32,803 nucleotides of DNA from a virus (Duplodnaviria; Caudoviricetes): the IMG/VR virus record IMGVR_UViG_3300037781_000204, positions 1 to 32,803 of that record; one strand, written 5' to 3'. Numbering within the stretch: position 1 is the stretch's first letter; each line of letters starts with the position of its first letter. The translations under genes and the position numbers were made by a program. The notes under the pieces were generated by a model that worked only from the letters and a program-made list of their open reading frames with translations, made no database searches and was not told where the DNA came from. Shown here piece after piece: positions 1 to 22,827 of the stretch.

Positions 1-252
1 ATGGGAACAAAAAAAAATATAAAAGGAATTAATTTCAAGCGAAATCCATACCGTGGCATCTTCAGAGAATTAGCTGAAGAACTATATCCTGACAAATCTC
101 CTGAAGACCAGATGGTAGTAAGAATATTCAGAAAGTATAAGAAAGGAAATCCTGAGATAACAAAAAAAGTTATTGAAAAGTGCAATGAGCGAGAAGCTCT
201 ATATATGGAGCTTAGAAAAAGAAAACCAATCTACGACAAGGTCGAGGCTTAA
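1..252 (+). CDS. Small basic putative DNA-binding protein (Ner/Cro position)
   Basis: 83 aa, Lys/Arg-rich, HTH-like segment RGIFRELAEEL...QMVVRIFRK; lies upstream of the transposase where Mu has ner. Confidence 0.45.
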   Translation: MGTKKNIKGINFKRNPYRGIFRELAEELYPDKSPEDQMVVRIFRKYKKGNPEITKKVIEKCNEREALYMELRKRKPIYDKVEA

Positions 253-597: not shown

Positions 598-2547
598 ATG
601 CAACAACTACTTACAACACATGAAATAGCAAAAATAACAGGAAAGAGCTTACGAGCTGTGCAATCTCATAGTCAGCTTGATAAGTATCTCGAATGTTATG
701 GTGAAAAAGAAGGACCTGGCAGACCGCCAAAATTATTTAAACCTGAAGTTCTTTCACTATGGAATAAGTATCACGTGCAAAATGACATCTCAAAAAAAGA
801 AATTCAAAAAGAGCAAAGACGCGCTGATTATATGGTGCCTCGTAATATGGACCCTGTACTATGGCAAACAGCTATTAGACACACTAGAGAAAACTTCCTA
901 TCTATGCCAGTTAAAAATCTGAAAGAAGCCGTCAGACAAACAGTTACTACTGCAGCATTCTACGGCTACGAAGTAGATGGTCAGTACATATATAATAAGC
1001 TCAAGAGAAATAAATCAAAAACTTCGAATTATAGATCTCCATTCTATTCTGAAAACTGGAATATGATTCACGACACTAAGTACAAAGTCAAAGACAATGC
1101 ACTCAACAATCATGCTTTCAACAGATACAATCTATTTGGAGTTTTCCGAAGTGCCGGTTTACTAGGTAAAGGCTACGGTAGCCGTAGAGTTATAGTTGTC
1201 GATGATTTCAAGCGTGACGTGTGGGTCGAAGACGAAGGTGAAATGAAAATGCAGTGGGGCCTTCTCTTTATTGATGGTATCACTAACTATCCATTGGCTT
1301 GTATTCCTACTGATAGTATCAATACTGATACTGTAGCTTATGGAATCCTAAAAACGGCATTTGAACATGGGATTCATGAAGATACGGTTTGGGTATTCGA
1401 AACATCCCATGCTATGAAGAATAACAATGTTCGCTCTCTTATCAAATCGTTCTATAGCAAAGAGCAATTAGAAGCGTTCAAATCTCCTAATCATTGGGTC
1501 AAGCAATTGTTCCCTGGTCAGACTGGACCGTATGTCAATTCGCCTGCTATGATCGCGCAATCTATTTTCAAATCGAAAGTAGAAAGAAGTATTAAAAATT
1601 TCAAAGACGGGTTCGATGCTGTTTATAATCCTACTACCTACCAAGGTCGTGATAGAGATGAAGGCGTGCAGCTATCACTAAAGGGCAATCCTCTCGATGT
1701 TTTAGCTATGTCTAAACCTGGTGTCGGAATGGGGGAAGTTCATACTACAGATAGAAAGCTAGAAGCTAAAACCTTTTATTCCGAAAGGCTATTGCCTGCT
1801 GAAGCATTTTGGGCCCGTTTTGAAAATTGGGTTTGGGGAAAATACATACAAATATCTAGAAGGGATATGTACAAAGACTTCAAACAGATGTTTAACTTTC
1901 CTCATAGCCCATCAATTCTAGAAGTACATAACTACTTCACTTCAGAAAATGATGGTAGTTTTATACCGGATATGGAAGACATTCAGCGCTTTGCTTATGT
2001 CCTTTACTATGCACAATCTTATAGACATAAATATACTGTTAAGATTAAGAGAATTGGACAGTACACTACGACTATTAACAACAATGAGTACCACCTAAGA
2101 AGCCGTGAACTCAATGAATCACATGTCGGATTAAGAGTGTGTACTATTCCAATAAACAAAGATTTGTCTGATTTCATAGTGATGGATGTTACCAGACCTG
2201 AAGACCCTGAATTTATTTGCATCGCTCACGATGTTACGGTAAGACGATTAGAAGACGTAAGACCGGCACAGATTGAAGCTCAGCAAATGAGAGAAGAAAA
2301 CACTAGAAGACTAAGAGAAATAGCTGATTCTAATTTCAAAGATTTAGGTGACGATTTCCACTACGACTCACACAAGCCACAAGCTGCTGAATGGGTTGAT
2401 GAAATCGGATCTAGACAAAGCAAGCTTATCGGAAACCAAAACAATGATGAAGAAGAAATTGAAGAAGTACAAGATGTAGAAGAAGTACAATTCAAATCGA
2501 AAGCAATAAAAGACATGATAGAAAAATTTGATTTAGACGATTTTTAA
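598..2547 (+). CDS. MuA/TnsB-like transposase (RNase H fold)
   Basis: N-terminal HTH (LLTTHEIAKITGKSLRAVQ), RRADxxxPR linker, core VIVVDD...LLFIDGITNYPLA...FEHG...WVFETS...KSKVERS with acidic residues D202/E268/E329, C-terminal beta-rich domain; Mu-like neighbours. Confidence 0.85.
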   Translation: MQQLLTTHEIAKITGKSLRAVQSHSQLDKYLECYGEKEGPGRPPKLFKPEVLSLWNKYHVQNDISKKEIQKEQRRADYMVPRNMDPVLWQTAIRHTRENFLSMPVKNLKEAVRQTVTTAAFYGYEVDGQYIYNKLKRNKSKTSNYRSPFYSENWNMIHDTKYKVKDNALNNHAFNRYNLFGVFRSAGLLGKGYGSRRVIVVDDFKRDVWVEDEGEMKMQWGLLFIDGITNYPLACIPTDSINTDTVAYGILKTAFEHGIHEDTVWVFETSHAMKNNNVRSLIKSFYSKEQLEAFKSPNHWVKQLFPGQTGPYVNSPAMIAQSIFKSKVERSIKNFKDGFDAVYNPTTYQGRDRDEGVQLSLKGNPLDVLAMSKPGVGMGEVHTTDRKLEAKTFYSERLLPAEAFWARFENWVWGKYIQISRRDMYKDFKQMFNFPHSPSILEVHNYFTSENDGSFIPDMEDIQRFAYVLYYAQSYRHKYTVKIKRIGQYTTTINNNEYHLRSRELNESHVGLRVCTIPINKDLSDFIVMDVTRPEDPEFICIAHDVTVRRLEDVRPAQIEAQQMREENTRRLREIADSNFKDLGDDFHYDSHKPQAAEWVDEIGSRQSKLIGNQNNDEEEIEEVQDVEEVQFKSKAIKDMIEKFDLDDF

Positions 2548-2575
2548 TAACCAATATATGAGGATATACCCATGG
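2548..2575 (+). repeat. Duplicated leader/RBS, copy 1
   Basis: TAACCAATATATGAGGATATACCCATGG, closely similar to 3017-3046. Confidence 0.7.
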
Positions 2576-2826
2576 ATACGCTACAATCACGAACACAACA
2601 AGACATAGAATTATCACTGAAAATAAAGGAACTGATAGGTAATGAGCTTATCAATGATCTAGAGGAGAAAAAGAAGATTTCAGAAGATGAGAAGCAGGAC
2701 TTACTAAAAATGCTGAATGAAAGCAATGAGCTAATTAGACAAACTGCGCAACTCGAAACAGATTTCTTTGACTTGATAGATTCTTATGTAAAAAGAGAGA
2801 CTGAGGAAGAAAATGTCGGAACATAA
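2572..2826 (+). CDS. Small helical protein with SHOCT-like motif
   Basis: GAGGA RBS; motif LEEKKKISEDEKQDLLKML; similar to the 3043 protein. Confidence 0.6.
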   Translation: MDTLQSRTQQDIELSLKIKELIGNELINDLEEKKKISEDEKQDLLKMLNESNELIRQTAQLETDFFDLIDSYVKRETEEENVGT

Positions 2827-3010
2827 TGAACAAACAAAAAAGCTTCAATTCTTAATAGAAAAGAAAGTTCTGACACCACTTGAGAGGAAGCAAATCAAGA
2901 ACAAATACAAGGCAATTCAGGACTTTAGAAACAAAGCTCAGAAATGCAGTGATGATATAGATGAGACCCTGAGCTTTGCAATGGTCAGATACCAACGAAA
3001 ACAAAACTAA
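2813..3010 (+). CDS. Small helical protein with SHOCT-like motif
   Basis: GAGGA RBS, overlaps upstream gene; motif LQFLIEKKVLTPLERKQIK. Confidence 0.55.
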   Translation: MSEHNEQTKKLQFLIEKKVLTPLERKQIKNKYKAIQDFRNKAQKCSDDIDETLSFAMVRYQRKQN

Positions 3011-3016
3011 ATTTTT

Positions 3017-3046
3017 TAACCAATTATAAGAGGATTATACAAATGG
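3017..3046 (+). repeat. Duplicated leader/RBS, copy 2
   Basis: TAACCAATTATAAGAGGATTATACAAATGG, closely similar to 2548-2575. Confidence 0.7.
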
Positions 3047-3411
3047 GATTACTAATACCAAAACAGAACCAATCTATTGACAAAAGAAAGTCAATAGCAA
3101 ATGAACTTGGGCGATTAGTCGATGAAGGTAAAATCGATGAAAGTAGCTACAATCACTTCATGTCCAAACTTAATGAAGCTGGTGAGCTTACCTTAGCTAT
3201 GCAGGAAGTGAACAAAAGAGAGCAAAAAGTAAAGGACAAATTGAGGAAGTCTGACGAATATCAAGAAAAAAGAAAAGTATCTCAGATGAAAAAATATGTC
3301 AAAGCACAACAAGAGAAAAACCTAGATGAGACTTACGGCGCTCTAGAGCTTATCACTACTCAATTAGGCGGTTCCGATGGCAAAAATTTAAAGAAATTAC
3401 TAACGAGTTAG
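3043..3411 (+). CDS. SHOCT-like motif plus coiled-coil protein
   Basis: GAGGA RBS; ELGRLVDEGKIDESSY motif followed by a charged helix. Confidence 0.6.
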   Translation: MGLLIPKQNQSIDKRKSIANELGRLVDEGKIDESSYNHFMSKLNEAGELTLAMQEVNKREQKVKDKLRKSDEYQEKRKVSQMKKYVKAQQEKNLDETYGALELITTQLGGSDGKNLKKLLTS

Positions 3412-3422
3412 GAGGCTATGTA

Positions 3423-3707
3423 ATGCACGATTACAAAAGACCTATACAGAAATTAGAACTAGATATCAGCTATTTCAAAAGGCAGTTAGCTAGCGCAAAA
3501 CTGCAGCAGAAAATGGCAAAGTCCAGTGGTGCTAAAATGCTTGCTCAGAGATTGAATACTCGAATTCAATATTTCTGTAATAGAATATCAGCATCTGAGA
3601 AAGAAGTAAAGCGACTAAAAGCTCTTTACAATATGAATGCTGAGGATCAAGCGGTCGCAAGATTAATACCAGCTAATGAATTTAAAGCGGAGGCTTCTCA
3701 TGCATAA
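3423..3707 (+). CDS. Basic coiled-coil hypothetical protein
   Basis: AGGAGG RBS; two similar helices (ISYFKRQLASA / IQYFCNRISAS). Confidence 0.7.
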   Translation: MHDYKRPIQKLELDISYFKRQLASAKLQQKMAKSSGAKMLAQRLNTRIQYFCNRISASEKEVKRLKALYNMNAEDQAVARLIPANEFKAEASHA

Positions 3708-4095
3708 TTTAACATGCGAAATAATATACGATCACTTGACTATTGATCAGCTCTATAGACTTGGTATTCTGCTAGCATCTTATGATATGCTTTCTCAACA
3801 GATTGCACTCAGAAATCACATAGATAAGAAATACGGTGTTATCTCTACAGATTACATGCAAAGAATTATTGAATGTGAAAACCTAGGTAAGAAATACCCA
3901 AAAGCTTTAAGAAGAGTATTGGATGTTCCAAACATTTCAAAGGATGTATTGAAGCTGTGTTCTATACTGCCAGTGGATATGTTCTACGAAGTACAACAAG
4001 CTTTAATCAAAGATGATGAAGTGACATTTGACACTTTCGGTGAGCTTGTAAAAATTAAAGAAGGATTTAACAAATTAACCAGGAGTCTAGTTTAA
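3700..4095 (+). CDS. Hypothetical early protein
   Basis: ORF 3676..4095; GGAGG at 3689-3693 favours ATG 3700. Confidence 0.7.
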   Translation: MHNLTCEIIYDHLTIDQLYRLGILLASYDMLSQQIALRNHIDKKYGVISTDYMQRIIECENLGKKYPKALRRVLDVPNISKDVLKLCSILPVDMFYEVQQALIKDDEVTFDTFGELVKIKEGFNKLTRSLV

Positions 4096-4097
4096 TC

Positions 4098-4682
4098 ATG
4101 GACAAAGCTCAACTACGAAAGCAAATATTTCTTACATGTCTGTCTAATTGCCATTACGACAAAGACAGAGCAAGAGCTATGCGCGAAGATATTTCTTATA
4201 AAATGTTCAGCAAATCTGAAGCCGAATTAACTGATAAACAATTGGAAGATTTACTTCATTTCCTACGCTTTGGTGAAAAACGCTGCACTAAAAAGCAAGA
4301 AAATACAGTTCGTGGCTATGCTTTCGAGTTCGCTATCTACTACCATGATTACGCAAATTTAAGAGTAGTCAACAAAGTTGGTGAAGTTATGAATCCCAAC
4401 GATGTTAAAACGATGATCCAGGAGTTATACAAAAACGGCTCTTATCGTGATGTTCCAGGCAAGTTCAAAGTAGCTCTTATGAAAGAGACTGCTAATCCAA
4501 AATGCAATCAATTGTTGCAAGAAGCCGATTATCGCGATGAAGCCAAAAAACCGAACGTTTTCTACTACGATAAAATGTCAGCAAGTGAAGCTGATTATCT
4601 GATCCGAAGATTCATGAAATTATTGTCTGAAGTAAAGATACATCATCCACTTGGTTTCGAAAAACAAATATCAAATAACTAA
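4098..4682 (+). CDS. GemA/Mu gp16 (DUF1018)-like regulator
   Basis: N-terminal pattern KQIF...YDKDRARAM...SKSEAELTDKQLEDLLHFL and a late MSASEADYLI motif resemble GemA-type proteins; adjacent to gam-like gene. Confidence 0.55.
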   Translation: MDKAQLRKQIFLTCLSNCHYDKDRARAMREDISYKMFSKSEAELTDKQLEDLLHFLRFGEKRCTKKQENTVRGYAFEFAIYYHDYANLRVVNKVGEVMNPNDVKTMIQELYKNGSYRDVPGKFKVALMKETANPKCNQLLQEADYRDEAKKPNVFYYDKMSASEADYLIRRFMKLLSEVKIHHPLGFEKQISNN

Positions 4683-4698
4683 CATAACTGGAATCATT

Positions 4699-5187
4699 AT
4701 GAAAATCAAAACAATGAAAAAATTCAACGAAAGTAGCGGCTACTATGCCGAGTTGAAAGCAAAAAAAGACAAGAAAGATGCTGAGTTCAAAGAAAAAATT
4801 GAGGCGATGAAAAAGAATTTCATCAAAGAGAACGAGTTAGACAATGCGCAAATTAAGAAGCTAGAGGAGGCTCTTTTAGATTTTGCTATAGAAAACGATG
4901 AAACACTCTTTGAAGGAAAGAAAAGCTTTAAAAACGAATTTGTGACGGTTTCTAAGCGTGCTTCATCATCGCTTGATGTAATCGAAGGAAATACTGAAGA
5001 ACTCACTATCGAAAAAATCAGAAATGACTTCCCAGTTTACGCTGATAGATTTATCAAAGTAACTGAGAAGGTTGACAAATCAACTATCAAATCTGCTATC
5101 AAATCAAAGGAAATTGATTACGATACATTAGAAGATCTAGGTTTGGTAGTAACTGAAGCTGAAGGTGTAACACTAAAAGTAAACTAG
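4699..5187 (+). CDS. gam: Mu Gam-like host-nuclease inhibitor (DNA end-binding)
   Basis: N-terminal coiled coil, LEEALLDFAIENDETLFEGKKSF...VSKR, FIKVTEKVDKSTIK and LGLVV, typical of the Mu Gam family; start reassigned to ATG 4699. Confidence 0.8.
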   Translation: MKIKTMKKFNESSGYYAELKAKKDKKDAEFKEKIEAMKKNFIKENELDNAQIKKLEEALLDFAIENDETLFEGKKSFKNEFVTVSKRASSSLDVIEGNTEELTIEKIRNDFPVYADRFIKVTEKVDKSTIKSAIKSKEIDYDTLEDLGLVVTEAEGVTLKVN

Positions 5188-5198
5188 CATAATCGGAA

Positions 5199-5232
5199 AG
5201 TGGAAGCCAGCAGCATACGGCTTCCACTCTCT
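5199..5232 (+). terminator. Stem-loop after gam (weak terminator or mRNA-stabilising hairpin)
   Basis: Perfect 10-bp stem AGTGGAAGCC/GGCTTCCACT with 10-nt loop; only a poor U tract follows. Confidence 0.55.
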
Positions 5233-5252
5233 TAAAACAAAGGAAATTACAA

Positions 5253-6266
5253 ATGAAAAAAATAGAATTAATTGAAATAGATTTAGAAAATGACTTAATC
5301 CTTCCACACCCAAAACAACATGAGCTTTATGGTGAAGAAGTTCTAGATGAGGATTTTGTAGAATCAATCAAACTGCAGGGAGTTTTGCAACCTCCGGTTG
5401 TAACCTATTTCAAAGATGTTAAAGACGGATTTGAAAACCACGACTATCCAAAAGATGCAATTGTTTTCATCTCAGGTCACAGACGTTGGAAAGGTTCTTT
5501 AAAAGCAGGAAGAGTAAAGCTTTATTGTGAACTGAAAAGGTATGGGAACTACTTCGATTCTGAGGTTGATCATATTACTTACAACAAACAAAGAAAGAAA
5601 TCAAAGGCTCAAATTGCTAAAGAATTATTAGCGTACAAGCAAAAATTAGACCAAGTTCGTAAGGTATTAGAAATTGAAGGGGTTGAAGGTGTTAAAAATT
5701 TCAACTCGTTTGATTTTCTCAAGCACGTGAAATACGATGAAAACGGGAAGCCATATTTACCTTATGCAACAGAAATGATTGAAAAGGATCTAGGTATTTC
5801 TAAAAAACATCAAGAGCAGTTGAATGTAATTTTCTCTGATGAATGGCTACAGAGTAAAATTGAAGACATACATTTTTCAAAACTTTCAGCAAGAAAGAAA
5901 AAAGAAGCTACTGAAAAATTTAGTGGTCTAGTAGAATCAGCGCGAACTGAAGTTGATAAGCGTGATGGTTTGTCAATAAATAGAATTCACAGTGAAATTA
6001 TGCGTGTCTGGAATGATATTGATTCAGTAATAAATCCAAAGCCAAAAGAGAAAGCCAAAAAGAAAAAAAGCCATACTAAAAAATGGGTAAAAGCAAAAGA
6101 TTTTGCTAATAGTATAGAAGTTTCTGAACTCGAAGTTGATAGTCCGGAGGCACACATTACTATTGGTGAAGAAACAAAAAACATAGTCTTTTTGAAAGGT
6201 GGTGATAATGCAGTTGTTGTCAACACTAAACAATTACTAAAATTCCTAAAAGAACAAGGTGTGTAA
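5253..6266 (+). CDS. ParB/Srx N-terminal domain protein
   Basis: LPHPKQ...FVESIKLQGVLQPPVV...ISGHRRW (ParB box motifs with GxRR); later HTH-like segment EMIEKDLGISKKH. Confidence 0.85.
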   Translation: MKKIELIEIDLENDLILPHPKQHELYGEEVLDEDFVESIKLQGVLQPPVVTYFKDVKDGFENHDYPKDAIVFISGHRRWKGSLKAGRVKLYCELKRYGNYFDSEVDHITYNKQRKKSKAQIAKELLAYKQKLDQVRKVLEIEGVEGVKNFNSFDFLKHVKYDENGKPYLPYATEMIEKDLGISKKHQEQLNVIFSDEWLQSKIEDIHFSKLSARKKKEATEKFSGLVESARTEVDKRDGLSINRIHSEIMRVWNDIDSVINPKPKEKAKKKKSHTKKWVKAKDFANSIEVSELEVDSPEAHITIGEETKNIVFLKGGDNAVVVNTKQLLKFLKEQGV

Positions 6267-6267
6267 A

Positions 6268-6543
6268 ATGGAATGTCCAAGATGTGGGAATACAGGTTTT
6301 CATACTTACGACACCAAAAATATAGGTGGTGGTAAAGTGAGAATTCGGAAGTGTGTCGGAACAGAGGAATCAAGAGGCTGCGGTTTAGCATTCAGAACGC
6401 ATGAGTCAATTATACAAGTTGAGGTTTTTAATCCAAATACATTAAAAACAGAAAAAGTGGACTTGACAAAGTACAAAAAAGACCATCTAGATAATGAACT
6501 CAAAGGAATGTCAGGATTTCAGCAAAGAATGTTTAGAGAATAA
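6268..6543 (+). CDS. Zn-ribbon protein (NrdR-N/Ogr-Delta-like), candidate transcription regulator
   Basis: MECPRCG...YDTK...RIRKC...GCGLAFRTHE follows the CPxCG...RxRxC..CG.xFxTxE pattern. Confidence 0.7.
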   Translation: MECPRCGNTGFHTYDTKNIGGGKVRIRKCVGTEESRGCGLAFRTHESIIQVEVFNPNTLKTEKVDLTKYKKDHLDNELKGMSGFQQRMFRE

Positions 6544-6548
6544 CGCAA

Positions 6549-7262
6549 ATGTCAAAAAACTACGAAAAAATATTAAAACAATTAGAAAGAAAGCTTACTA
6601 GGTTAATCAAATCTATGCTTAAAAGTGGTGCTAGTGAAGCTGCTATTAAAAGAGCTGCCAAAAAACTAATAAAGCAGTTCAATCCATACTCTAGATTGTC
6701 AAAACAATTCGAAAAAGATGCACTCAAAGTAGCAGAAAATGCTTTTTCTGAGACTTCTAAGAGGTTGTTTTGGATTCAGCAGCACAATAGACCAAAATTG
6801 AGCAAAAAAGCCCTTAAAACGCTAATTGTTGTCAATAATCAGTTTGCTCTAATGCAGAATAAAATCAATAAATCAGTTGTCTCTCTTGTTGAGAAGGCAA
6901 TCAAAGAAGATATTTCATCTAGTGAGTTGTCTAAACTAATTGCTGAAGCTGTAGGAGGCGGTAAATACAGAGCAAACACTATAGCTAATACTGCTTTGCA
7001 GGGATATTCAGCAGCTAACACTTTAGAAATGGCTAAAAATGCTGGTGTTAAGAAATATAAGTATTCTGGACCACCGGCGCAAAGGCAATTTTGCAAATCT
7101 AGACTAGGTAAGGTTTACACTTACGATCAAATACAAAATATGGACAATGAGCAAGGTTTGTCAGTGCTATACTTTGGCGGTGGTTACAACTGCCCTCACT
7201 TTTGGGAACCTGTTATTGATGATGAACTGATTTCCGAACTCAAATCTGAAGGTAAGATATGA
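6549..7262 (+). CDS. MuF/SPP1 gp7-like minor head (head morphogenesis) protein
   Basis: RANTIANTA, AGVKKYKYSGP...RQFC and GGYNCPHFWEPV motifs typical of MuF/minor capsid proteins. Confidence 0.75.
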   Translation: MSKNYEKILKQLERKLTRLIKSMLKSGASEAAIKRAAKKLIKQFNPYSRLSKQFEKDALKVAENAFSETSKRLFWIQQHNRPKLSKKALKTLIVVNNQFALMQNKINKSVVSLVEKAIKEDISSSELSKLIAEAVGGGKYRANTIANTALQGYSAANTLEMAKNAGVKKYKYSGPPAQRQFCKSRLGKVYTYDQIQNMDNEQGLSVLYFGGGYNCPHFWEPVIDDELISELKSEGKI

Positions 7263-8686
7263 GCGGCGTTTATCAAATGCCTAAGAATAACAACAAAACT
7301 GACACTTCGCAAGTTGGGAACAGAATACCTCCTAACTCAGTAGAAGCTGAAGTTTCAGTATTGGGTGCTATGATGCTAAGTAAAGAGGCAATTTCTAAAG
7401 CTGCTGCTTTGTTGAATGAAGATTCTTTTTATCAAGAGCGGTTTAAGTTGGTTTTCGCTGCTATGATTCGCATGAGTGAAAAAGATATAAAGGTCGATTT
7501 GATTACTCTATGTGATGAGCTGAGTAAGCAAGGCAAATTAGACAAAATCGGAGGCCGTCCATTTATAGCAAAGATTAATAAGTATGTCGCTACTTCAGCA
7601 AATGTAGAAACATATTGTTTTATAGTTCTAGAAATGCAAATGAGAAGGGAAATAATATCAACTAGCGGTGCATCAATTACTGATGCTTACGATTTGGAAG
7701 TCGATGTTCTCGAATTGCTAGACAGAACAGAAGCTGAAATATTCAAGATTGCTGAAAAGCGTATGTCAAAGAACTTCCAATCTATGCCGGAACTGACTCG
7801 CTCAACTGCAAAGGCAATTGAAAATATTCAGCTAAGAGCAAAAAACGGTGTTACTGGGTTGTCTACTGGTCTAATTGATTTGGATAAATATCTAGGAGGC
7901 CTGCAGGATTCAGAGCTAGTAATTATTGCAGCTCGTCCATCTATGGGAAAAACGGCACTGGGATTAACCATGACTATGAACATAGCTAAAGAAGGTAAAT
8001 CTGTTGCTTTCTTCTCTCTGGAAATGGCTTCTACTCAATTGCTCATTCGTTTGCTCTCAGCTGAAGCAAAGATAAATCAACAGAAAATCAGAACTGGAAA
8101 AATCAGCAAAGATGAAAACCAAAGGTTAATAGAAGCACTTGGTGAAATGAATGATTTGAAAATATACATTGACGATAGTTCACTAATGGAAATTGGTGAG
8201 CTGAAAGCCAAGTGTAGAAGACTAAAAGCAGAACATGATATTGATGTTGTATTTGTAGACTACTTACAGCTGCTTAGAGCTAACGGCCTAGAATCAAGAG
8301 AAAGAGAAATTGCTTTAATCTCAATGACTCTAAAGCAAATTGCTAAGGATTTAGAAATACCTGTAGTAGCACTTGCGCAACTCAACAGATCTATCGAAGC
8401 TAGACCAGGTAAAAGCCGTTCACCTATGCTTTCTGATTTACGTGAGTCAGGATCCATAGAACAAGATGCAGATGTGATTATGTTTGTTCAAAGACGTGAA
8501 GTCTATGGACTGATAGAATACGATGACAAAACGCCTACAGAAGGCACTGCAGAACTTATAATTGGTAAGCAAAGAAACGGACCAATCGGAACTGTTAAAA
8601 CTGCATTTGTCAAGAAATACGCACGATTTGAAAATTTAGATTTTGGCTATGAAGAAATGCCATTTGATAACGAAAGAAAATTTTAA
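7259..8686 (+). CDS. dnaB: Replicative DNA helicase DnaB
   Basis: PPNSVEAEVSVLG N-domain, Walker A AARPSMGKT, FSLEM, VDYLQL, LAQLNR, SDLRESGSIEQDAD, KQRNGP; full length, no intein. Confidence 0.97.
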   Translation: MSGVYQMPKNNNKTDTSQVGNRIPPNSVEAEVSVLGAMMLSKEAISKAAALLNEDSFYQERFKLVFAAMIRMSEKDIKVDLITLCDELSKQGKLDKIGGRPFIAKINKYVATSANVETYCFIVLEMQMRREIISTSGASITDAYDLEVDVLELLDRTEAEIFKIAEKRMSKNFQSMPELTRSTAKAIENIQLRAKNGVTGLSTGLIDLDKYLGGLQDSELVIIAARPSMGKTALGLTMTMNIAKEGKSVAFFSLEMASTQLLIRLLSAEAKINQQKIRTGKISKDENQRLIEALGEMNDLKIYIDDSSLMEIGELKAKCRRLKAEHDIDVVFVDYLQLLRANGLESREREIALISMTLKQIAKDLEIPVVALAQLNRSIEARPGKSRSPMLSDLRESGSIEQDADVIMFVQRREVYGLIEYDDKTPTEGTAELIIGKQRNGPIGTVKTAFVKKYARFENLDFGYEEMPFDNERKF

Positions 8687-12028: not shown

Positions 12029-12056
12029 AAGCCCACCGTTTGGTGGGCTTTTTTTT
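12029..12056 (+). terminator. Rho-independent terminator at convergent junction
   Basis: AAGCCCACC-GTTT-GGTGGGCTT followed by a T run; separates the + early operon from the - packaging block. Confidence 0.9.
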
Positions 12057-12564
12057 ATACAATCTCAACTTTTATATTGTCATTCAAATATTTTGCTGCC
12101 AACCGTTCTAATTCCTTATCTTCCATACCAAGAAAATCTCTTCCACGGTCTATACTCCACAAAGCTTTTTCTGCATTCTCTTGTCTATTGAATCCGATCT
12201 GAATGCCATCTTTTGGCAATGCTATTACAGATAGGTCTTTCATCATTTGTCCGGTAAGTGTAAGGTTTACAGTGCCTCCAAATTGTGGTTTCCAAGCTGC
12301 TTTTAGTGCTTTGTACCCACCTTTAATTACAACCCATTCTGATTTACCTTTTTTATACCAGAATAGATTGCCTGCAGATTCTAATCGTTTTAGAGCGGCT
12401 TGAGTAGTAGCACCTGAAGGCATAGCGAAATAACGAGTGCTATAAGGTTTGAATGGTTTCCCGTCCTTATCCCTACCCTCTTGAGTTCTCTTTCTAATAT
12501 GCTTTACTATTTCAAGTCCTAGGAGCTGTTTTGAAAGATTAGGTATCGTCACTTTGATTTTCAT
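12055..12564 (-). CDS. Virion morphogenesis / tail-completion protein (Mu gpG-like)
   Basis: IRKRTQEGRDKDGKPFKPYS...Y, VNLTLTGQM and RDFLGM motifs; follows the portal. Confidence 0.75.
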   Translation of the reverse strand: MKIKVTIPNLSKQLLGLEIVKHIRKRTQEGRDKDGKPFKPYSTRYFAMPSGATTQAALKRLESAGNLFWYKKGKSEWVVIKGGYKALKAAWKPQFGGTVNLTLTGQMMKDLSVIALPKDGIQIGFNRQENAEKALWSIDRGRDFLGMEDKELERLAAKYLNDNIKVEIV

Positions 12565-13780
12565 CTTCTAAAGCTTGGTTAAGTGAACTTGATATGTTTA
12601 GACTAATTACTTGATCTTCATCATCAGCAAGTGGAATACCTGTTTTTTCATTCCATGTTTTAACTTGGAATTTCAACCCTGAATTAATTGCATCAAGCAT
12701 TATATTTGCATTAGCTGTTCTATCCTGTTTAAGCTTTGGATGCATCACAAATTCATAAGGTACATCTAGGCCATAAGCTGACTTGTCTACATTCATATAG
12801 TAGTCATGTCTAAGTAGCATGTCATTTATTAGCAGTTCGAACTCAAATCGCATTTCCCTTGCTAGATCTTCCTCACCTCTTTCAAGCACAGTCAAAGCGT
12901 TTCTTTCTCTATCTGTAGCCATCATTGTAGTATTAGTAATAGCTACTTCTACTTCTTCATAACATGACTGTAGGAATGCATCGAATGATTTGCCGGCATT
13001 CTCGTTATTCAGACGTTCCCAAATAAATTCTACTAAATCTGATGTTACAGTAGCTTTATTTTTTACTGCTTTTCTTACAGCTTCAGCAGCTGCTTTCTTA
13101 TCTTCAGGACTAGCTCCTAGCTTAGTTTTTGCTTGGATTATCCCTTTTAGGAATTGAATGTATTGAGACCATTCCTGACGGCTCAAATTAATCATATAGC
13201 AAGCATAGATTACAGTTCTCAGTATTCCTCCTGGTTCAGGATAGTCTGGTACATAAACTAAGTAATTGTGCTTCTCATTTTCTTGAATCTCAGTCCTCAC
13301 AAATTGATTATGTTCAGCTTGTTGCAGAATTGACACACCATAATTATATCTATGGTTCCTTTCCAATTCGTACGGATTGTAATTGTAGTCGATTTGAGGC
13401 TTGAAACCATAGTCAGTTATTTCCCATTTGAGCCTTTGAACAGAAACTCCAAACAAGTCACCTTCTATATACCTTTTAGTGTATTGCTTTATTATAGAAC
13501 TCAGTCGTTTTTCAGCTTCCTCTGCTAATCTGGCATGTTCCTCATTGTTCTCATCTATTGGAACTATTGCCCAGGTCGCACTAGATACATGCGATGTTCT
13601 TCTAAGCTTATGTCTAGTCATTTTGGGAACGCATGACATAGCACGTTCTTCTAAGCTCATCAGATCCCTTACATCTCTATTTTCATCTTCAAACACAGAG
13701 GCTTTCTTTATTGCCATCTGTATATCTTTAGGGTCTGTAGGAAATTCCTTAGTGTTTAATATTGCTGCTCTATAGTTCAT
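12539..13780 (-). CDS. Portal protein (Mu gp29/DUF935-like)
   Basis: 413 aa after TerL; LFGVSVQRLKW and GGILRTV...EWSQYIQFLKG resemble the Mu-type portal. Confidence 0.7.
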   Translation of the reverse strand: MNYRAAILNTKEFPTDPKDIQMAIKKASVFEDENRDVRDLMSLEERAMSCVPKMTRHKLRRTSHVSSATWAIVPIDENNEEHARLAEEAEKRLSSIIKQYTKRYIEGDLFGVSVQRLKWEITDYGFKPQIDYNYNPYELERNHRYNYGVSILQQAEHNQFVRTEIQENEKHNYLVYVPDYPEPGGILRTVIYACYMINLSRQEWSQYIQFLKGIIQAKTKLGASPEDKKAAAEAVRKAVKNKATVTSDLVEFIWERLNNENAGKSFDAFLQSCYEEVEVAITNTTMMATDRERNALTVLERGEEDLAREMRFEFELLINDMLLRHDYYMNVDKSAYGLDVPYEFVMHPKLKQDRTANANIMLDAINSGLKFQVKTWNEKTGIPLADDEDQVISLNISSSLNQALEDENQSDDT

Positions 13781-13790
13781 TTAAAAACCT

Positions 13791-13988
13791 CTAATTCTCG
13801 TTTGTGTCGCTTGTTATTTTTGTTAGACTAAATATCTTTTTGCAATCGAAGCAGTATTTATAACATGTAGTTTCAGTGCTTATTAATTCTTTACTCACTT
13901 CATTCTTCAGTTGAAATACTTGATATTTAGCTTCAAATGTTTTGAAATCTTCATGTCTGCAATTTTCAGCTGCTGCCACTGTTCCCAT
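13791..13988 (-). CDS. Small Zn-binding protein
   Basis: CRH...YCFDCKK; 1-nt overlap with the TerL stop; GGAGG RBS. Confidence 0.6.
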   Translation of the reverse strand: MGTVAAAENCRHEDFKTFEAKYQVFQLKNEVSKELISTETTCYKYCFDCKKIFSLTKITSDTNEN

Positions 13989-15592
13989 TAAAAGCCTCCA
14001 TCAAATCCTATTGAAGTAACTTCATAAGCATTACCACCTGAAACAGCGTTTGGAATAAACATCCCATTTTCAATACCGAATTGGTAACATGAAATTAAAC
14101 AGTCTGGAAAATCATCAGATCCATTGTCCTTCTTAGAACCAAAAGTGTGGAATTGATCCCAAGCATCAGAACCTTCTTCAGTTTCTAAAAATTCTACAGG
14201 AAAGCGCAACTTACCTTGCTTATAAATAGAACTCAGATGTAGTGATATCATATCTACATTGTATTTGCAGAACATAATAGGAGGCATAGGAATGCCTTTG
14301 ATAGCTACAAAGTTTCTTATGTTATTATCCCAGATGGACTCTTGACTAACATTGCCATCCATCGCCATTATCCGAATGCGGCCATCAAACAGAGTCAGAT
14401 AATCGTTTAATAGTTCATTTGATGAACTGTAGCTTTTACACTTTGGTTTATATACATAATAAAGATCATTGCTTCTACTATATAGAATTGCTGCCATTGC
14501 TGTAGTGTCACCTTCTCCCTTTTTAGAAAGATTAGGATCACAAAATGCAGGACCATAAGCATCTGAAGGAAGCTCACTTTCATAGTAAGTCTTTTTGAAT
14601 TGCTCTGGAAATACATGACCTGACTTTAGTATCGGATCTGATTGTGCTTCAGCCCATTCTATAGCTCCGTCTACATTCATCATTGACTTCATTTCTTCTT
14701 CAGACTTTGCAGGGTATTTATTATGCCAAACTGAGCCTACATATTTAACTGCTGCAGTTATTTTGTGACTCCATGCAGGAAATGCTAATATTTCAACTAG
14801 ATCAGAGACAATCCCTTTTTCTTGATTCTCTTTCAGTTTGTTGAATAGGCATTTGGGATGCAAGTTATTTCCTATGATAATCATAGATGCATTATCGCGA
14901 GCTGATCTATAAGCCTCACGTATCTTTAACAGTTTCTTATGGTTATTTTCTTCATTGAAGACTTGTTTAGTAGTCTCCAAATCGTCACCATCTATAAAGT
15001 CTAGTCTTTCTAAATCAACGTGACTATCTCCTCTAGCACCAGCATCTAAAGAGTATGGCACATAACTACAGAATCCCTTATTTGTATTGCATTTGAAAAT
15101 AAGTATATCATCATTAAGTGTATCTATCTGTATGTCAAAATCCTCTAGTAATCTTTGATTAGAACGAATGATATTAGCAAAGGCACGAACAAATTTCATT
15201 GCTTTCTTCAAATTCTCTTTTACTATACCACCAGAATTAGCTCGACCTGAAAGAAACCACCACAATCTAATTTTGAGCAAGTAAACGGTTTTTGCTAAAC
15301 TCCTGTGAGCTCCAAACCAATGAATACCTTTTTCAAATGTTTTTTGTAACATTGTCGTATGAAGAAAACCGGGTGCATACCATCCTTGTCTAAACATACT
15401 CTTAGGAAAGTAAGTTCTATCAAAATATAAAAAATCCTTCATTGCTTTTTTGACTCTCTTATCCCTTGCTGCTTTCGAATTATCTTTGAATCCATCAGAT
15501 GGACTTGAAAACTCTCTTCTCGAAAGCTCCTCTTCAAATTTAGCAAACTCTTTTTCGAGTGGGCTTAGTTTTCTAGTTCTAGGATTTTCCAT
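13988..15592 (-). CDS. terL: Terminase large subunit
   Basis: Walker A-like AHRSLAKT, Walker B-like FIDGDDLE, coupling IIIGN, nuclease FCDPN...GDTTA and DDFPDCL. Confidence 0.9.
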   Translation of the reverse strand: MENPRTRKLSPLEKEFAKFEEELSRREFSSPSDGFKDNSKAARDKRVKKAMKDFLYFDRTYFPKSMFRQGWYAPGFLHTTMLQKTFEKGIHWFGAHRSLAKTVYLLKIRLWWFLSGRANSGGIVKENLKKAMKFVRAFANIIRSNQRLLEDFDIQIDTLNDDILIFKCNTNKGFCSYVPYSLDAGARGDSHVDLERLDFIDGDDLETTKQVFNEENNHKKLLKIREAYRSARDNASMIIIGNNLHPKCLFNKLKENQEKGIVSDLVEILAFPAWSHKITAAVKYVGSVWHNKYPAKSEEEMKSMMNVDGAIEWAEAQSDPILKSGHVFPEQFKKTYYESELPSDAYGPAFCDPNLSKKGEGDTTAMAAILYSRSNDLYYVYKPKCKSYSSSNELLNDYLTLFDGRIRIMAMDGNVSQESIWDNNIRNFVAIKGIPMPPIMFCKYNVDMISLHLSSIYKQGKLRFPVEFLETEEGSDAWDQFHTFGSKKDNGSDDFPDCLISCYQFGIENGMFIPNAVSGGNAYEVTSIGFDGGF

Positions 15593-16065
15593 GCTTCTAA
15601 TATTTCTTTTTCTGTTGCATCTGGATAAAAATATCTAACTAATTCAATTATTTTCTGTACGTCCGGTTTCTTGACTGCATCTACAAACTGCATATCTTGA
15701 TTCCGTTTCATTGTTATAGTAAGTTTTGATACTAAATCAAGTTGTTCTTTCGGTTCTAAGTCAGTACGCGATCTTAAAGCTGCTATAACATTAACTATTG
15801 TTTCATTAATTAATGTGTTAGCTCCTACTTCCAGAAGCTCTTTTGCTACTTTCTCTTTATTAGCATCAAACTCTACTCTCAGGTCAGCATCCAAAGCAGC
15901 AGTATATTCTTCATTTCTGTACTTATCTACATAGTTACGAACTTGATCTTTGGTTACATTGAACCTCAGAGCAACATTCTTGTAGCTACTGCTATCTTTG
16001 AATAAGTAGTATTTAGCTATCTTAATTTGCTTTGCTTTGCTAACAGTTTTTGATTTTTTAGCCAT
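15565..16065 (-). CDS. Putative terminase small subunit (HTH)
   Basis: Start reassigned to ATG 16065 (AGGTG RBS); HTH SYKNVALRFNVTKDQVRNYV; directly upstream of TerL. Confidence 0.65.
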   Translation of the reverse strand: MAKKSKTVSKAKQIKIAKYYLFKDSSSYKNVALRFNVTKDQVRNYVDKYRNEEYTAALDADLRVEFDANKEKVAKELLEVGANTLINETIVNVIAALRSRTDLEPKEQLDLVSKLTITMKRNQDMQFVDAVKKPDVQKIIELVRYFYPDATEKEILEAWKILELEN

Positions 16066-16495
16066 TTGGGTCACCTGCTGCTGATTCATAATGAAAGAAA
16101 AATGATACAGCGAATATTGAAATACCATCAGAATTTTTAACTGCAAAAATTGGGTCTGATTCTCTCCAAAGTCCAATGTTTGCCTCTAGTAAAGCACGTT
16201 CTATTTTCTCTGCTAAAGCGTAAGCATCTTTTGAGGATTTCAACTTAGTACCTCTTTTTGCTCCACACAGTACTAGAAGCCCAGCTATTCTGGACTCATT
16301 GAAACTACTCTGATAATCTTGATCGGTTTGTTGCTGAGCAGCATAGAACCTTATGAAAGCATCAGTAACATTGAATACTTCTTCTTCTTTTTCACCAACT
16401 AAACCTTCTTCAATTTGGCTTTCCTTAATTCCTAAGTAGCTTTTTTTCGATTTAAGTTCAGTTAGAACAATTTGTGTCATTTCATCTAATGTCAA
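16058..16495 (-). CDS. Putative tail terminator / neck protein (Mu gp37-like)
   Basis: 145 aa, TTG start coupled to the gp36-like gene; alpha/beta pattern with AYALAEKIERAL helix. Confidence 0.45.
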   Translation of the reverse strand: MTLDEMTQIVLTELKSKKSYLGIKESQIEEGLVGEKEEEVFNVTDAFIRFYAAQQQTDQDYQSSFNESRIAGLLVLCGAKRGTKLKSSKDAYALAEKIERALLEANIGLWRESDPIFAVKNSDGISIFAVSFFFHYESAAGDPNG

Positions 16496-16872
16496 AACTC
16501 TACTACTCCCTCAATATCGAAAGTATTACTACTATCTTCTTGTTCACCTTGTGCATAATATTTTGGGAAGGTCTCTAGCATTTCCTTTGCTTCTTTGTAG
16601 TTGTTATGAATTCTTTGTTTTTGCAGCTCGTCCAAAGTGATATTCAAAGCCAAAGCATAGTATTCCAATATCCAAGCATAAGGTCTTTTTAGTTGTTTTT
16701 TAACCTCTAAGTAGTCAGGATCAGTAATCAGAGCTACTGTGTAATTGGTATATCTGTATATTTCCTGCTCCACTTCATCTTTGATTTTATTGAATTCTGA
16801 TTTACTGTCAGAATCTAATTCTTTGTAAATGAGGTTCAAAATCAAACCTTGCAAGTCTACTAATTCATACAT
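16492..16872 (-). CDS. Head-tail adaptor (Mu gp36/DUF1320-like)
   Basis: VEQEIYRYTNY and RIHNNYKEAKEMLE motifs; 126 aa, helical. Confidence 0.6.
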   Translation of the reverse strand: MYELVDLQGLILNLIYKELDSDSKSEFNKIKDEVEQEIYRYTNYTVALITDPDYLEVKKQLKRPYAWILEYYALALNITLDELQKQRIHNNYKEAKEMLETFPKYYAQGEQEDSSNTFDIEGVVEF

Positions 16873-17020
16873 AATTCTACTCTCATTGAAATTAACAATT
16901 CAAAGCTAACTGACTATTTTCAATCTTTTTATCTATATGCCTATGTAGATAAAGTCTAATCAGAATAGTACCCAAATTGCACCTAATCAATTAAACAACT
17001 ATGCAAAAGGAGTGATTGCA
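16873..17020. promoter_or_regulatory. Divergent late control region with central dyad
   Basis: Gap between divergent virion operons; TTTATCTATAT-gcct-ATGTAGATAAA (16928-16953) flanked by ACTATTTT/AGAATAGT. Confidence 0.7.
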
Positions 17021-17713
17021 ATGGGAAGAAACTACACAACGAAAATAGATGGAAAAGAAGTCGAAGTAGAATTTGAGGATGAAGAAATTCTAAAACAATT
17101 TACTCAAGATGAACTGATTGAGAGAATTGACTCCAAAGATCCAGGCTTCATTAAAAAGATGTTTTCGAATCTAGGTATTAAGTTCAAAGAAACATCTAAG
17201 GAAGATGACAAGCCAAAGGAAAATGAAGATGGTAAATCAAAAGGTGAAAGCGTGATCGATAGCAATCAGTTTACAGAGGCTCTTAAGCCATTACTTGACA
17301 AGCTTGGCAATGTAGAGAATGAGTTAGATGAGATTAAAAAAAAATCTAAGCTAACGGAGCAAGAGCAAGCTAATAAAAAGCTTGAAACTTTGTTAGACAC
17401 TGCAGTTAGTGAGGGCAGAATCGCTAAAGGTGAGCGCGATAAGTGGAAGAAAACTTATGAAGATGAATATGATGGCAGGGTTGATCTATTTGAAAAGCTA
17501 GTTAATACTAGACCTGTTGACGAAAGCTTGAAAAATGGAAGCTCAAATTCATCTAGTGGCCAAAACAGTGGTAATAATAATACTGGTGAGAATGGAGGAG
17601 TTCCAACCTTTAAGACATCGGAGATAAATAAGATGTCAAAAGAGGAATATTCTAAGAATAGAGCTGCTATTAAGAAAGCCTATGAGGCAGACACAATCAT
17701 AATTGACACATAA
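17021..17713 (+). CDS. Capsid scaffolding protein
   Basis: AAGGAG RBS favours ATG 17021; charged coiled coil, LLDTAVSEGRI, low-complexity linker, C-terminal INKMSKEEY...IKKA; precedes the capsid gene. Confidence 0.7.
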   Translation: MGRNYTTKIDGKEVEVEFEDEEILKQFTQDELIERIDSKDPGFIKKMFSNLGIKFKETSKEDDKPKENEDGKSKGESVIDSNQFTEALKPLLDKLGNVENELDEIKKKSKLTEQEQANKKLETLLDTAVSEGRIAKGERDKWKKTYEDEYDGRVDLFEKLVNTRPVDESLKNGSSNSSSGQNSGNNNTGENGGVPTFKTSEINKMSKEEYSKNRAAIKKAYEADTIIIDT

Positions 17714-17750
17714 AATTGAATGTATTAATAATTTTTAAAAGGTAAATAGA

Positions 17751-18623
17751 ATGGATAAGTTTATTCCAGAAATATGGGCCCGAGAGGTCTTGGAAGATTT
17801 CCCAAAGGCTACGGTTGGCTACAATCTTTGTACTACTGAGTACGAAGGTGAAATAATAGGATTAGGTAGTAAGATACATATTCCTTCAGCGCAAAAAATG
17901 ACAGTCGAAAAATACACTGGTGCAGAGATAAACCCTCAAGTACTAGCTTCTAATGATGTTGAATTAGAGATAACTGAAGCTGATTCAATTTCAGGTGAAA
18001 TCGATAGAACTAAGCAGGCCGTATCTCCATACAACTTAACTGGTATTTATCAGAACCAAGGAAGTTTAGCACTTGCTGAATCTTCAGATAAGATGATACT
18101 AAAAGCTCAAGCTGATGGTGCTCATGCTGATAACGTAATCGACACAATAACTTTAACTCCTGCTAATATATTCACAACATTAGAGGAGTGCGCAACTAGG
18201 TTGTCAGAAAAATCTGTGCCTGCTGTTGCTGACAAATTCGCAGTGTTTACTCCTAGAGATATTCAGAATATCAGAAAATCTACGGACTATATTCCTGCAA
18301 AAGACTTAGACCCTAATACATTGATCACTGGTCAAGTAGGTAAGATCTACGGATTTAGAATCCTAGAATCAATGAATGTTTTCACCCAAGTACAAGCTGA
18401 TATTCCAAATGGAGATCCTGTTCACAGGCTTTTACCTTATGGAATGGTAGGAGCAACTGCATTTGCTAATGCAATTCCTGCAAACTTAGTAGAAGCGATT
18501 CCGATGGAGAAAAAATATGCAACTCTAATCAAAGGCTTGCATATGTACGGAATTAAGGTTGTAAGACCTGAAGCTATGGGAGTAATCAAAGTTGATACGG
18601 GTATAACTGGTACGCAAGTATAG
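17751..18623 (+). CDS. Major capsid protein (P22-coat-like HK97 fold)
   Basis: FIPEIWAREVL, YEGEI...GSKIHIP, GQVGKIYGFRILES, GLHMYGIKVVRPE. Confidence 0.88.
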   Translation: MDKFIPEIWAREVLEDFPKATVGYNLCTTEYEGEIIGLGSKIHIPSAQKMTVEKYTGAEINPQVLASNDVELEITEADSISGEIDRTKQAVSPYNLTGIYQNQGSLALAESSDKMILKAQADGAHADNVIDTITLTPANIFTTLEECATRLSEKSVPAVADKFAVFTPRDIQNIRKSTDYIPAKDLDPNTLITGQVGKIYGFRILESMNVFTQVQADIPNGDPVHRLLPYGMVGATAFANAIPANLVEAIPMEKKYATLIKGLHMYGIKVVRPEAMGVIKVDTGITGTQV

Positions 18624-18625
18624 TA

Positions 18626-18713
18626 AAAATTATCGTGGTTGAAGCGGGTTCGGATAGCTCCTGAACATGGGCGGTAACATAAAAGCCGCCCCCGTTTTTC
18701 ATAAAAAAATTTT
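18626..18713 (+). ncRNA. Structured cis-RNA (three-way junction / terminator-like) after the capsid gene
   Basis: GC-rich island; outer stem 18640-48/18691-701 encloses hairpins 18649-65 and 18670-90. Confidence 0.5.
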
Positions 18714-18739
18714 CCAAACAATTTTAAAATGGTTTTAAA

Positions 18740-19090
18740 ATGGCACTTGAGAGATTAAATATAAGTCCAACTAGTTTTGATGCATCACAAAATCATAAGA
18801 TTCTAATTCCTTTGAATTCGGATCACTATATGATGCAAATAAATTACGCAGGATTTGTTCCTGGAGCTGGAACTGCTTTCAAATTACATAGGATTGCCTC
18901 GACGAATCCTAAAGAAGCTGATTTGATTGAAATTGCTGAAAGCGAACAAATAATAGCAGATGCTAATGGAAATGTAATCTACTCAAACGAATTGCCAGAA
19001 AAAGCTGATTTTCTTTGTCTGGAATATACAGCTGATGGAAATGATAACGCATCTACATTTACTGTAAATATGTCTGCGAGGTCGTGGTAA
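18740..19090 (+). CDS. Putative virion (head decoration) protein
   Basis: 116 aa, beta-rich, immediately after the capsid gene; function from position only. Confidence 0.45.
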   Translation: MALERLNISPTSFDASQNHKILIPLNSDHYMMQINYAGFVPGAGTAFKLHRIASTNPKEADLIEIAESEQIIADANGNVIYSNELPEKADFLCLEYTADGNDNASTFTVNMSARSW

Positions 19091-19741
19091 ATGGCTAATC
19101 ATGTCATAATATTGAATAAAAGTGCTGGTGGTGGAGCTTGGGGCTCAATAAGTGGGACATTAGCAAATCAAATAGATTTGAATAATGCTTTAGGGGCAAA
19201 AGTTAATGTAAACGGCTCCAAAGTACTATCTGATAACAATTATACAACAGCCGAAAAAAATAAATTAGCAGACTTGATAAGTGGTGATGGTTGGTTTACA
19301 AAAGTTTTAAATAGTAATGTGATAATCTCAACAACTTCTTTAACTGAAATAACAGCCCTTACTTTTGATTCAACTGAGATGTTGAACCTACTGGGGAATT
19401 CACCTGAAGAATATATAGCTGAAGGAGTCATCTGGATTGACAATAACAACAAATCTGGTCAAGGGTTCATTGCTAATCTTGAAAACGGATCAGGAAATGC
19501 AAGTGCGTTGCTCTGGGAAAATGTAGGTAATATAATGCAGCTTACAAAAGGAATTTATAGCAACTTTCAGCCATATTTTAATCATACAAGTCCTATTCGA
19601 GAAGGAAGTCTTATTAGATATGATATGACTTGTAACAGCTATTCAAAATTAGAGTTGTCTGTCTCACAAAAGTATGCTACTGCAGATCCAGTCTATGTTA
19701 GAAAAGGCTCTTTTCTTAAAATAAAGAAACGTGGTGCTTGA
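19091..19741 (+). CDS. Short fibre-like virion protein
   Basis: WGSISGTLANQIDL...AL and KVLSDNNYTTAEKNKL fibre shaft motifs; beta-rich C-terminal head (GSFLKIKK). Confidence 0.6.
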   Translation: MANHVIILNKSAGGGAWGSISGTLANQIDLNNALGAKVNVNGSKVLSDNNYTTAEKNKLADLISGDGWFTKVLNSNVIISTTSLTEITALTFDSTEMLNLLGNSPEEYIAEGVIWIDNNNKSGQGFIANLENGSGNASALLWENVGNIMQLTKGIYSNFQPYFNHTSPIREGSLIRYDMTCNSYSKLELSVSQKYATADPVYVRKGSFLKIKKRGA

Positions 19742-19742
19742 T

Positions 19743-22125: not shown

Positions 22126-22178
22126 GTTGTTATTTAAAAAATGAAAATTAATTATTAAAATTTATAAGAGGTCGAGAG

Positions 22179-22820: not shown

Positions 22821-22827
22821 GTATGAA

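Follow-up and report, generated by a model that had tools for sequence, protein, structure and literature searches.

Mu-like phages combine a transposase, MuA, with an AAA+ ATPase, MuB. The target sequence given for Mu is CYSRG, its recognition is a property of MuA, and MuB makes replication efficient; when MuB is missing transposition continues, with a target preference that sharpens from 7-fold to 20-fold, and the immunity of the Mu genome is mostly MuB-independent (PMC7350765). On these grounds a phage with no MuB at all would be mechanistically plausible. The duplications made on insertion are given as 5 bp for Mu and 6 bp for B3, and the B3/Tn552-type prophages of Leptospira, which have TA-TA ends and 6-bp repeats, are all reported to carry the ATPase TnpB, named with the transposase TnpA as a signature protein (PMC8705779). 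Phage KS10 is described as lacking TG...CA ends and repeats, but as having a second transposition protein. The element considered here occupies a 32,803-bp stretch of phage DNA, IMG/VR record IMGVR_UViG_3300037781_000204 (the window), and encodes a divergent MuA-like transposase with no MuB. It is probable, in our judgement, that the window represents a family of Mu-type prophages without MuB, whose relatives lie in 4-bp, TA-centred duplications; that the transposase captures bendable targets alone; that the phage replicates by transposition with host restart; and that the ParB and DnaB genes found in the window are later and optional additions.

The transposase (649 aa; 598..2547, plus strand) gave no match in Pfam, PHROG or NCBIfam and none to a solved structure by sequence. 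Its ESM Atlas neighbours bear Mu-transpos_C, and a Foldseek search with an AlphaFold model (built from 12 sequences; predicted local distance difference test score 63.8) returned the Mu transpososome first (4fcy, E 3.9e-7) and TnsB next, placing an RNase H/integrase core at residues 195-349 (Z 12.7, root-mean-square deviation 2.8, 121 residues aligned). The MuA/TnsB type given to this gene in the original prediction is thereby supported. A profile search with the protein collected 86 protein clusters at E values up to 0.001, and D202, K325 and E329 are invariant across 70 aligned sequences. In the hhalign alignment E268 falls on MuA D336 and E329 on MuA E392, both catalytic residues of MuA; the catalytic triad is accordingly predicted as D202-E268-E329. 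The window therefore has the features of a MuA-type DDE transposase, by fold and by alignment, in a D-E-E form, and six of 17 genomic copies have the D-D-E form. Compared with its relative in locus L001, the gene has nonsynonymous (dN) and synonymous (dS) divergences of 0.19 and 1.5 (dN/dS about 0.12) and is under purifying selection.

An additional open reading frame (ORF) was seen beside the transposase of L001. It lies directly after that gene (L001:3010-3291), encodes 93 aa and is similar to the DNA-binding region of the transposase itself; positions 75-165 of the transposase profile are matched by a 93-aa protein. This ORF could be a stand-alone end-binding regulator. The window carries unrelated ORFs of 84 and 65 aa at the same position.

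The absence of MuB, which had been suggested from the window alone, is confirmed for the lineage: an AAA+ ATPase of the MuB/TnpB kind was found beside the transposase neither in the window nor in ten complete relatives. Profile searches for an ATPase of the MuB/TniB type were negative in the window and these relatives and positive for the Mu control. Neither AAA_22, which detects Mu MuB at 2.8e-23, nor TniB matched in the window; AAA_22 had 148 matches in four host genomes and none inside their five elements, where TniB likewise found nothing. A profile built from the MuB of Mu and three MuBs of the same class as the family's hosts gave no match better than E 0.11 in any of the six frames, either in the window or in the ten elements; Mu scored 3e-130. 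The MuB_C profile (PF09077) matched nowhere, controls included, and is uninformative. In a six-frame scan of the window for Walker A motifs, the only matches were DnaB and one in a 169-aa ORF (12055-12564).

Among more distant transposases MuB does occur, one or two genes downstream; it was recognised by homology in G295:C15, G607 and G347, and by Walker A only in G585, G545 and G360. A tree of the core domain separated 21 MuB-less from seven MuB-bearing transposases by one branch (support 98/99, rising to 100/100 once Mu, G585 and G545 were removed). Ten of the 21 MuB-less loci besides the window are partial, and for these MuB-less means that no MuB was found in the DNA fetched. Loss of MuB by decay after integration might be suspected, given that all complete copies are prophages in assemblies and that CheckV puts the window at 38% completeness. 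However, the same MuB-less layout recurs in the 21 loci down to 20-25% transposase identity, family searches met no internal stops, dN is far below dS, and ends and duplications are intact; decay is largely refuted by these observations and is scarcely credible.

It could also be supposed that a MuB-like ATPase is supplied to the elements in trans, by the host or by another prophage. The hosts G295 and G744 do carry a MuB homologue elsewhere, and the genomes searched are incomplete assemblies. With this query, though, seven hosts (G001, G061, G081, G232, G125, G684 and G682) gave no homologue, and the one match in G355 was marginal (E 4e-4); the virion modules of the elements are moreover complete, and the elements make up a branch that is deep and coherent. 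Borrowing in trans is very improbable.

Both ends were available for ten MuB-less elements, and they could be resolved in all ten. Every one lies between two direct copies of a sequence exactly 4 bp long whose middle two bases are TA, in the register that the end repeats dictate. Termini of the TG...CA type were found in eight: G232:C19 10717-42569 (flanked by CTAT), G232:C7 25067-57691 (ATAG), G061:C32 4996-31970 (ATAG), G682:C107 100162-131623 (ATAT), G355:C4 32432-60030 (ATAT), G295:C16 33492-60921 (TTAG), G744:C5 48182-77818 (GTAT) and G684:C1 2719883-2749477 (GTAG). The remaining two, G001:C2 18537-52768 (ATAT) and G081:C38 18335-51851 (CTAT), end in TA...TA and GG...CC, respectively, and have the same 4-bp footprint. 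Counting ATAG with its complement CTAT, the ten different insertion sites comprise CTAT four times, ATAT three times, and TTAG, GTAT and GTAG once each. The expectation had been of TG...CA ends with a 5-bp duplication; the ends agree in eight of ten relatives, and the duplication is 4 bp in every one.

Repeated motifs are present at each terminus, with the outermost repeat in the same register at both ends. From the composition of the host flanks, the chance of a central TA in all ten duplications is 6.5e-14, the motif having been noticed after the first five; for the last two elements the expected 4-mer was derived from one end before the other end was found. The prophage in G001 splits a peptidase-like gene and the 4-bp parse keeps the frame of that gene, and the prophage in G061 appears to split a transporter-like gene. 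Six single-ended relatives were also read by eye, and three of them gave CTAT, ATAT and ATAA. A TG...CA parse of the G001 ends was rejected, as it leaves no duplication and is absent from the 25 best-ranked of 222 frame-keeping parses.

Two properties of the target were considered and set aside. Recognition with a fixed polarity was suggested by the first four elements, in which CTAT reads in the sense of the transposase; the later TTAG, ATAC and GTAG, in the same sense, break this pattern. Self-immunity through depletion of the target 4-mer was likewise rejected: in six phage genomes CTAT has an observed/expected ratio of 1.04-1.23, like that of host flanks, and ATAT one of 0.77-1.0. As the target 4-mer is not depleted in phage genomes, self-avoidance must have another source. 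Separately, host repeats forming a perfect 23-bp inverted pair lie just outside the prophage in G232:C7 (23704-23753 and 57778-57819), the right one about 110 bp from the prophage end.

A flanking 4-bp repeat is formally indistinguishable from a short recombination core. The transposase might therefore serve only for integration, either by pasting in a circular or linear genome in the manner of an insertion sequence or by recombination at a 4-bp core, with the phage replicating from an origin helped by DnaB. The intact DnaB, which is under purifying selection, would fit this, as would the lack of MuB, the protein that makes Mu replication efficient (PMC7350765), and heterogeneous junctions were not seen directly. 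Yet nine of the ten complete elements have no DnaB, and among the 52 ORFs of the window that were scanned no initiator or primase was named and no tyrosine or serine integrase family matched (Pfam, PHROG). Neither does a fixed att site, which the original prediction named together with such an integrase as an alternative, appear: ten different sites with five different 4-mers are occupied, and two near-identical left ends in G161 appear differently flanked. Gam, the Mu-type portal and multi-repeat ends are all retained as well. Use of the transposase for integration only is therefore held to be unlikely.

The 337-aa ParB-like protein (5253..6266, plus strand) is a real member of the ParB family. 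The window protein itself matches PF02195 below the cut-off (E 0.002), but ParB_N is matched by 11 of 13 ParB-like family members, the GHxR box is conserved, and the protein model matches the ParB/Noc/KorB fold. No ParA-type Walker ATPase was found in the window, so it is not classed as a ParABS system (ParB with cognate ParA and parS), parS itself not having been searched for. ParB is present in six of the ten complete elements and absent from G355, G295:C16, G744 and G684. With MuB-bearing transposases as outgroup, these four branch earliest, and the ParB-bearing members, limited to one subclade of the family, are nested (86/87); within this 15-member subclade ParB is found wherever the fetched DNA reaches. 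In the G001 prophage a second ORF, of 110 aa and with ParB-N only, lies directly before the full ParB-like gene (L005:14384-14716).

DnaB (7259..8686, plus strand) is intact, with its motifs preserved (PF03796 E 2e-97; TIGR00665 over the cut-off). The gene is carried by three tips only, namely the window, L001 and G001, the last being the one complete element of ten to have it. The three phage proteins group with the host DnaB of eight genomes near G001 (100/100), to which those of the window and G001 are 70-72% identical (70-71% for the window), compared with 47-56% to other hosts; the N-terminal domain and linker have drifted most. A tree nests the phage DnaB inside this genus-level host clade, a placement that was not retained, as a sister position survives an approximately unbiased test (p 0.224). 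Judged by this grouping, DnaB is an acquisition from the host lineage. Phage P1 offers a parallel in Ban, a DnaB analogue and host-derived accessory phage gene; P1, however, is a plasmid prophage and not transposable. The comparison with G001:C2 also points to mosaic exchange: DnaB is 86% identical and two small late ORFs (18740-19090 and 20167-20451) are 83% and 93% identical, while most genes show 30-57%. The window transposase is nearer to that of L001 (75%); the window DnaB is not (64% to L001).

The original prediction was that target choice and replisome hand-off in this lineage may be done by small proteins, ParB and the phage DnaB. In this version, ParB would replace MuB in target choice and immunity and DnaB would replace the host restart helicase, giving a new, self-contained system of transposition and replication. 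Both genes are intact, conserved and placed in the early block, the ParB box and fold are kept, and the literature seen contained no previous account of a Mu-like phage with DnaB. Nevertheless, four complete MuB-less elements have neither gene and leave the same 4-bp TA footprint, ParB-less members branch first, and ParB coexists with MuB in the roseophages vB_ThpS-P1 and vB_PeaS-P1 (PMC5488378). With ParB in six and DnaB in one of ten complete elements, neither is the family's general substitute for MuB, and the proposal is quite improbable. Each may help in the lineage that bears it. The likely order of events, as read from the trees and gene distribution, is the absence of MuB first, ParB later and DnaB last.

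A 122-aa helical ORF (3043..3411, plus strand) lies in or near the position that MuB would occupy. Helical ORFs of 113-186 aa are found at the same position in relatives and make up a loosely conserved family: a leave-one-out profile beat all 200 shuffles for 12 of 13 members, a weak control for coiled-coil periodicity. The family shares no PHROG and gave no usable ESM Atlas match. These proteins of about 120 aa are the best candidates for a transposase partner.

The mechanism held to be most likely is that bendable NTAN targets are captured by the transposase alone and that restart is left to the host. The transposase would bind the end repeats, nick the ends and transfer them to a target whose strands are cut 4 nt apart; so short a stagger would call for a sharper bend, and the easily bent TA step would supply it. 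Several features suggest lytic growth by replicative transposition: Gam is present, the head genes are of the Mu type, genome sizes fall in a narrow range, and neither an initiator nor an integrase was named. Gam would protect DNA ends as it does in Mu. More tentatively, the helical protein in the MuB slot may modulate the transposase, ParB might bind and spread on the phage's own DNA for end pairing, shielding or transcription control, and the captured DnaB might add to the helicase supply for many forks. A further scheme of ATPase-free replicative transposition, in which the D-E-E transposase with its 4-bp TA-centred footprint is switched on by a small coiled-coil partner from the MuB slot, a later-acquired ParB clamp spreads over the phage genome, pairing the ends and blocking self-insertion, and the captured DnaB loads the replisome at the strand-transfer junction, is a tentative possibility and a rather unlikely one.

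ATPase-free DDE recombinases such as the foamy-virus integrase make a 4-bp stagger with a flexible pyrimidine-purine step at its centre. The RNase H core, recognised here by structural match, is a shared feature; the difference is that here a MuA domain architecture moves a whole tailed-phage genome.

Several observations weigh against capture of TA-centred targets by the transposase alone and replication by transposition. The ends of the window element and its duplication fall outside the record, so that the footprint is known from relatives; among these the palindromic ATAT of G001 also permits 0- or 2-bp parses, the single-ended G125 is apparently flanked by AAAT (by eye), which has no central TA, and neither G094 nor G223:C127 has a securely placed left end. 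The ends of G295:C15, a MuB-bearing control of the same class, did not resolve, and the link between loss of MuB and a 4-bp footprint depends on the figures published for Mu and B3. The transposase model is of low confidence over residues 316-425, and the second catalytic acid is Glu in 11 and Asp in six of 17 genomic copies, the activity of the Glu form being a prediction. In the assembled contigs that were available, neither heterogeneous junctions nor host DNA at virion ends were seen. Finally, the right flank of about 15 kb found in three sequencing runs fits a resident prophage and shows no lytic transposition.

That flank bears on the state of the window itself. The window is the entire record, of provirus class, trimmed at gene borders so that it starts at an ATG and ends at a stop codon; the repressor and both termini fall outside it. 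Positions 1-9000 correspond to 104,479-113,478 of a 152,959-bp contig in public pond assemblies, possibly the source of the record, and in two other public runs the DNA goes on for 15,667 and 15,225 bp beyond the right end of the window. From these flanks, the window is an integrated prophage. In one further public assembly the element is a contig of 34,210 bp, which by arithmetic reaches past the window by 1,277 bp on the left and 130 bp on the right; in the complete G001 relative the corresponding distances to the termini are 1,233 bp on the left and 119 bp on the right. This match suggests that the assembly broke at both ends of the element. By comparison with the G001 prophage and this contig, the window holds about 96% of a unit-length element, in spite of its CheckV value.

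The closest genomic relative is the complete prophage in G001, a metagenome-assembled genome labelled as a Chlorobiota bacterium and tentatively Kapabacteria/Ignavibacteria-like; the other complete prophages, of 27-34 kb, also come from metagenome-assembled genomes. The transposase profile matches 12 of 254 genomes of G001's order, and a wider profile matches 14 of 401 sampled genomes of its class and 13 of 401 of its phylum, the matches in the phylum being weak except for that of G001. Two transposase scans of IMG/VR found no relatives, and neither the transposase nor ParB had a match among GenBank phages. The end repeat of G001, 17 bp long, has 38 exact matches in IMG/VR, probably by chance.

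Across the family a conserved early block runs from a repressor-like gene through a Ner-like ORF, the transposase, small ORFs, a GemA-like ORF and usually Gam to MuF, followed by a portal-terminase block in the opposite orientation. In the window a small ORF upstream of the transposase (1..252, plus strand) is Ner-like by position; it is 39% identical to the ORF at the same position in the complete G001 prophage, which faces a divergent repressor-like gene. The 194-aa ORF at 4098..4682 (plus strand) is conserved in 14 aligned relatives. The GemA label originally given to it is the weakest of those proposed: its position and weak matches in two more distant orthologue candidates (E 8e-5 and 0.003) favour it, and none of the 14 aligned members matches PF06252, with an hhalign score of 4.5% to Mu GemA. 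The predictions of a Gam-like gene and a Mu-type portal held, the former at 4651..5187 (plus strand; PF07352 E 1.3e-10, phrog_491 E 2.7e-11) and the latter at 12539-13780 (minus strand; PF06074 E 2e-19). A protein with a zinc ribbon like that of NrdR-N is encoded at 6259..6543 (plus strand), with a match to PF22811 below the cut-off (E 0.0024) and same-position homologues in relatives. A MuF/SPP1 gp7-like head morphogenesis gene (6549..7262, plus strand; phrog_324 E 3.5e-10, TIGR01641 E 7.6e-8) ends the early block, away from the portal, as it does throughout the family.

The head-packaging block (12055..16872, minus strand; PF06074, phrog_38) contains a virion morphogenesis-type ORF, the portal, TerL (13988-15592, minus strand; phrog_38), a TerS-like gene and two small ORFs, and is collinear in relatives. 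It is followed by protease/scaffold, major capsid, lysis and tail genes (17012..32803, plus strand; PF10123, phrog_267, PF00959, PF10145), collinear with those of the G001 prophage. There the right end comes 119 bp after the last tail gene; the record of the window stops at the stop codon of this gene. Gam and the Mu-type head genes (portal, MuF and protease) are thus all present in the window. No match to Mor/C was found among its 52 ORFs (Pfam), and Rfam returned no RNA family at all. An HNH endonuclease gene (PF13392; 10409-11020) is also present in L001 and was not seen in the G001 prophage. A second layout, in which the repressor and transposase lie mid-genome with early and late arms running outward, was seen in G081:C38, G684:C1 and G744:C5, on different transposase branches. 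Genes resembling DNA adenine methyltransferases (N-terminal motif) lie at L005:19760-21908 and at the right ends of G232:C19, G232:C7 and G081:C38; the one in G001 adjoins a 516-aa unknown ORF, as an insert.

The family shares with Mu a MuA-fold transposase placed after a repressor and Ner-like pair, Gam, a GemA-like slot, the Mu-type portal, MuF and protease, several end repeats, mostly TG...CA termini, and insertion at many sites, some inside genes. It differs in having no MuB, a 4-bp rather than a 5-bp duplication, a TA-centred target in place of CYSRG (PMC7350765), often Glu as the second catalytic acid, genomes of 27-34 kb against 36.7 kb, MuF in the early block, no match to Mor/C among the window's ORFs, and optional ParB and DnaB. 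The TA...TA ends of G001 form an inverted repeat and belong with a different transposase clade from those of the Leptospira prophages. The roseophages vB_ThpS-P1 and vB_PeaS-P1 are Mu-like with an early-region ParB gene, as here, but are described as keeping the transposase B gene and as having no Gam (PMC5488378). Hankyphage/Ca. Mubacviridae of Bacteroidota and Flavobacterium phage fF4 are also transposable prophages of the same broad host phylum, and both fF4 (PMC7761591) and hankyphage are reported to have the ATPase. In the literature seen, which did not cover key surveys and so does not establish absence from print, neither a phage family lacking MuB nor a transposable phage with a 4-bp duplication was described. 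The family looks like an undescribed variant of the transposable phages: it has no MuB, its footprint is 4 bp and centred on TA, and its transposase goes unrecognised by standard libraries.

MuB or TnpB counts as a signature of transposable phages, and screens for such phages make use of it (PMC8705779; bioRxiv 10.64898/2026.05.11.724261). Mu-like gut phages, for example, are defined in the Ca. Mubacviridae preprint by adjacent MuA and MuB, with an uncharacterised 'Only Tnp' class listed (bioRxiv 10.64898/2026.05.11.724261), and this adjacency rule would miss the present family. A MuB-less branch whose transposase lies outside Pfam, PHROGs and NCBIfam is invisible to MuB-based screens. If it is active, a MuA-like transposase that works as a single protein and places 27-34 kb in TA-centred sites could also be a compact tool for the insertion of large DNA. 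For the biology of transposing phages, the family is a natural version of the Mu delta-B experiment: it bears on how a MuA-type enzyme sets its stagger length and target choice, and on the source of self-immunity when MuB is not its cause.

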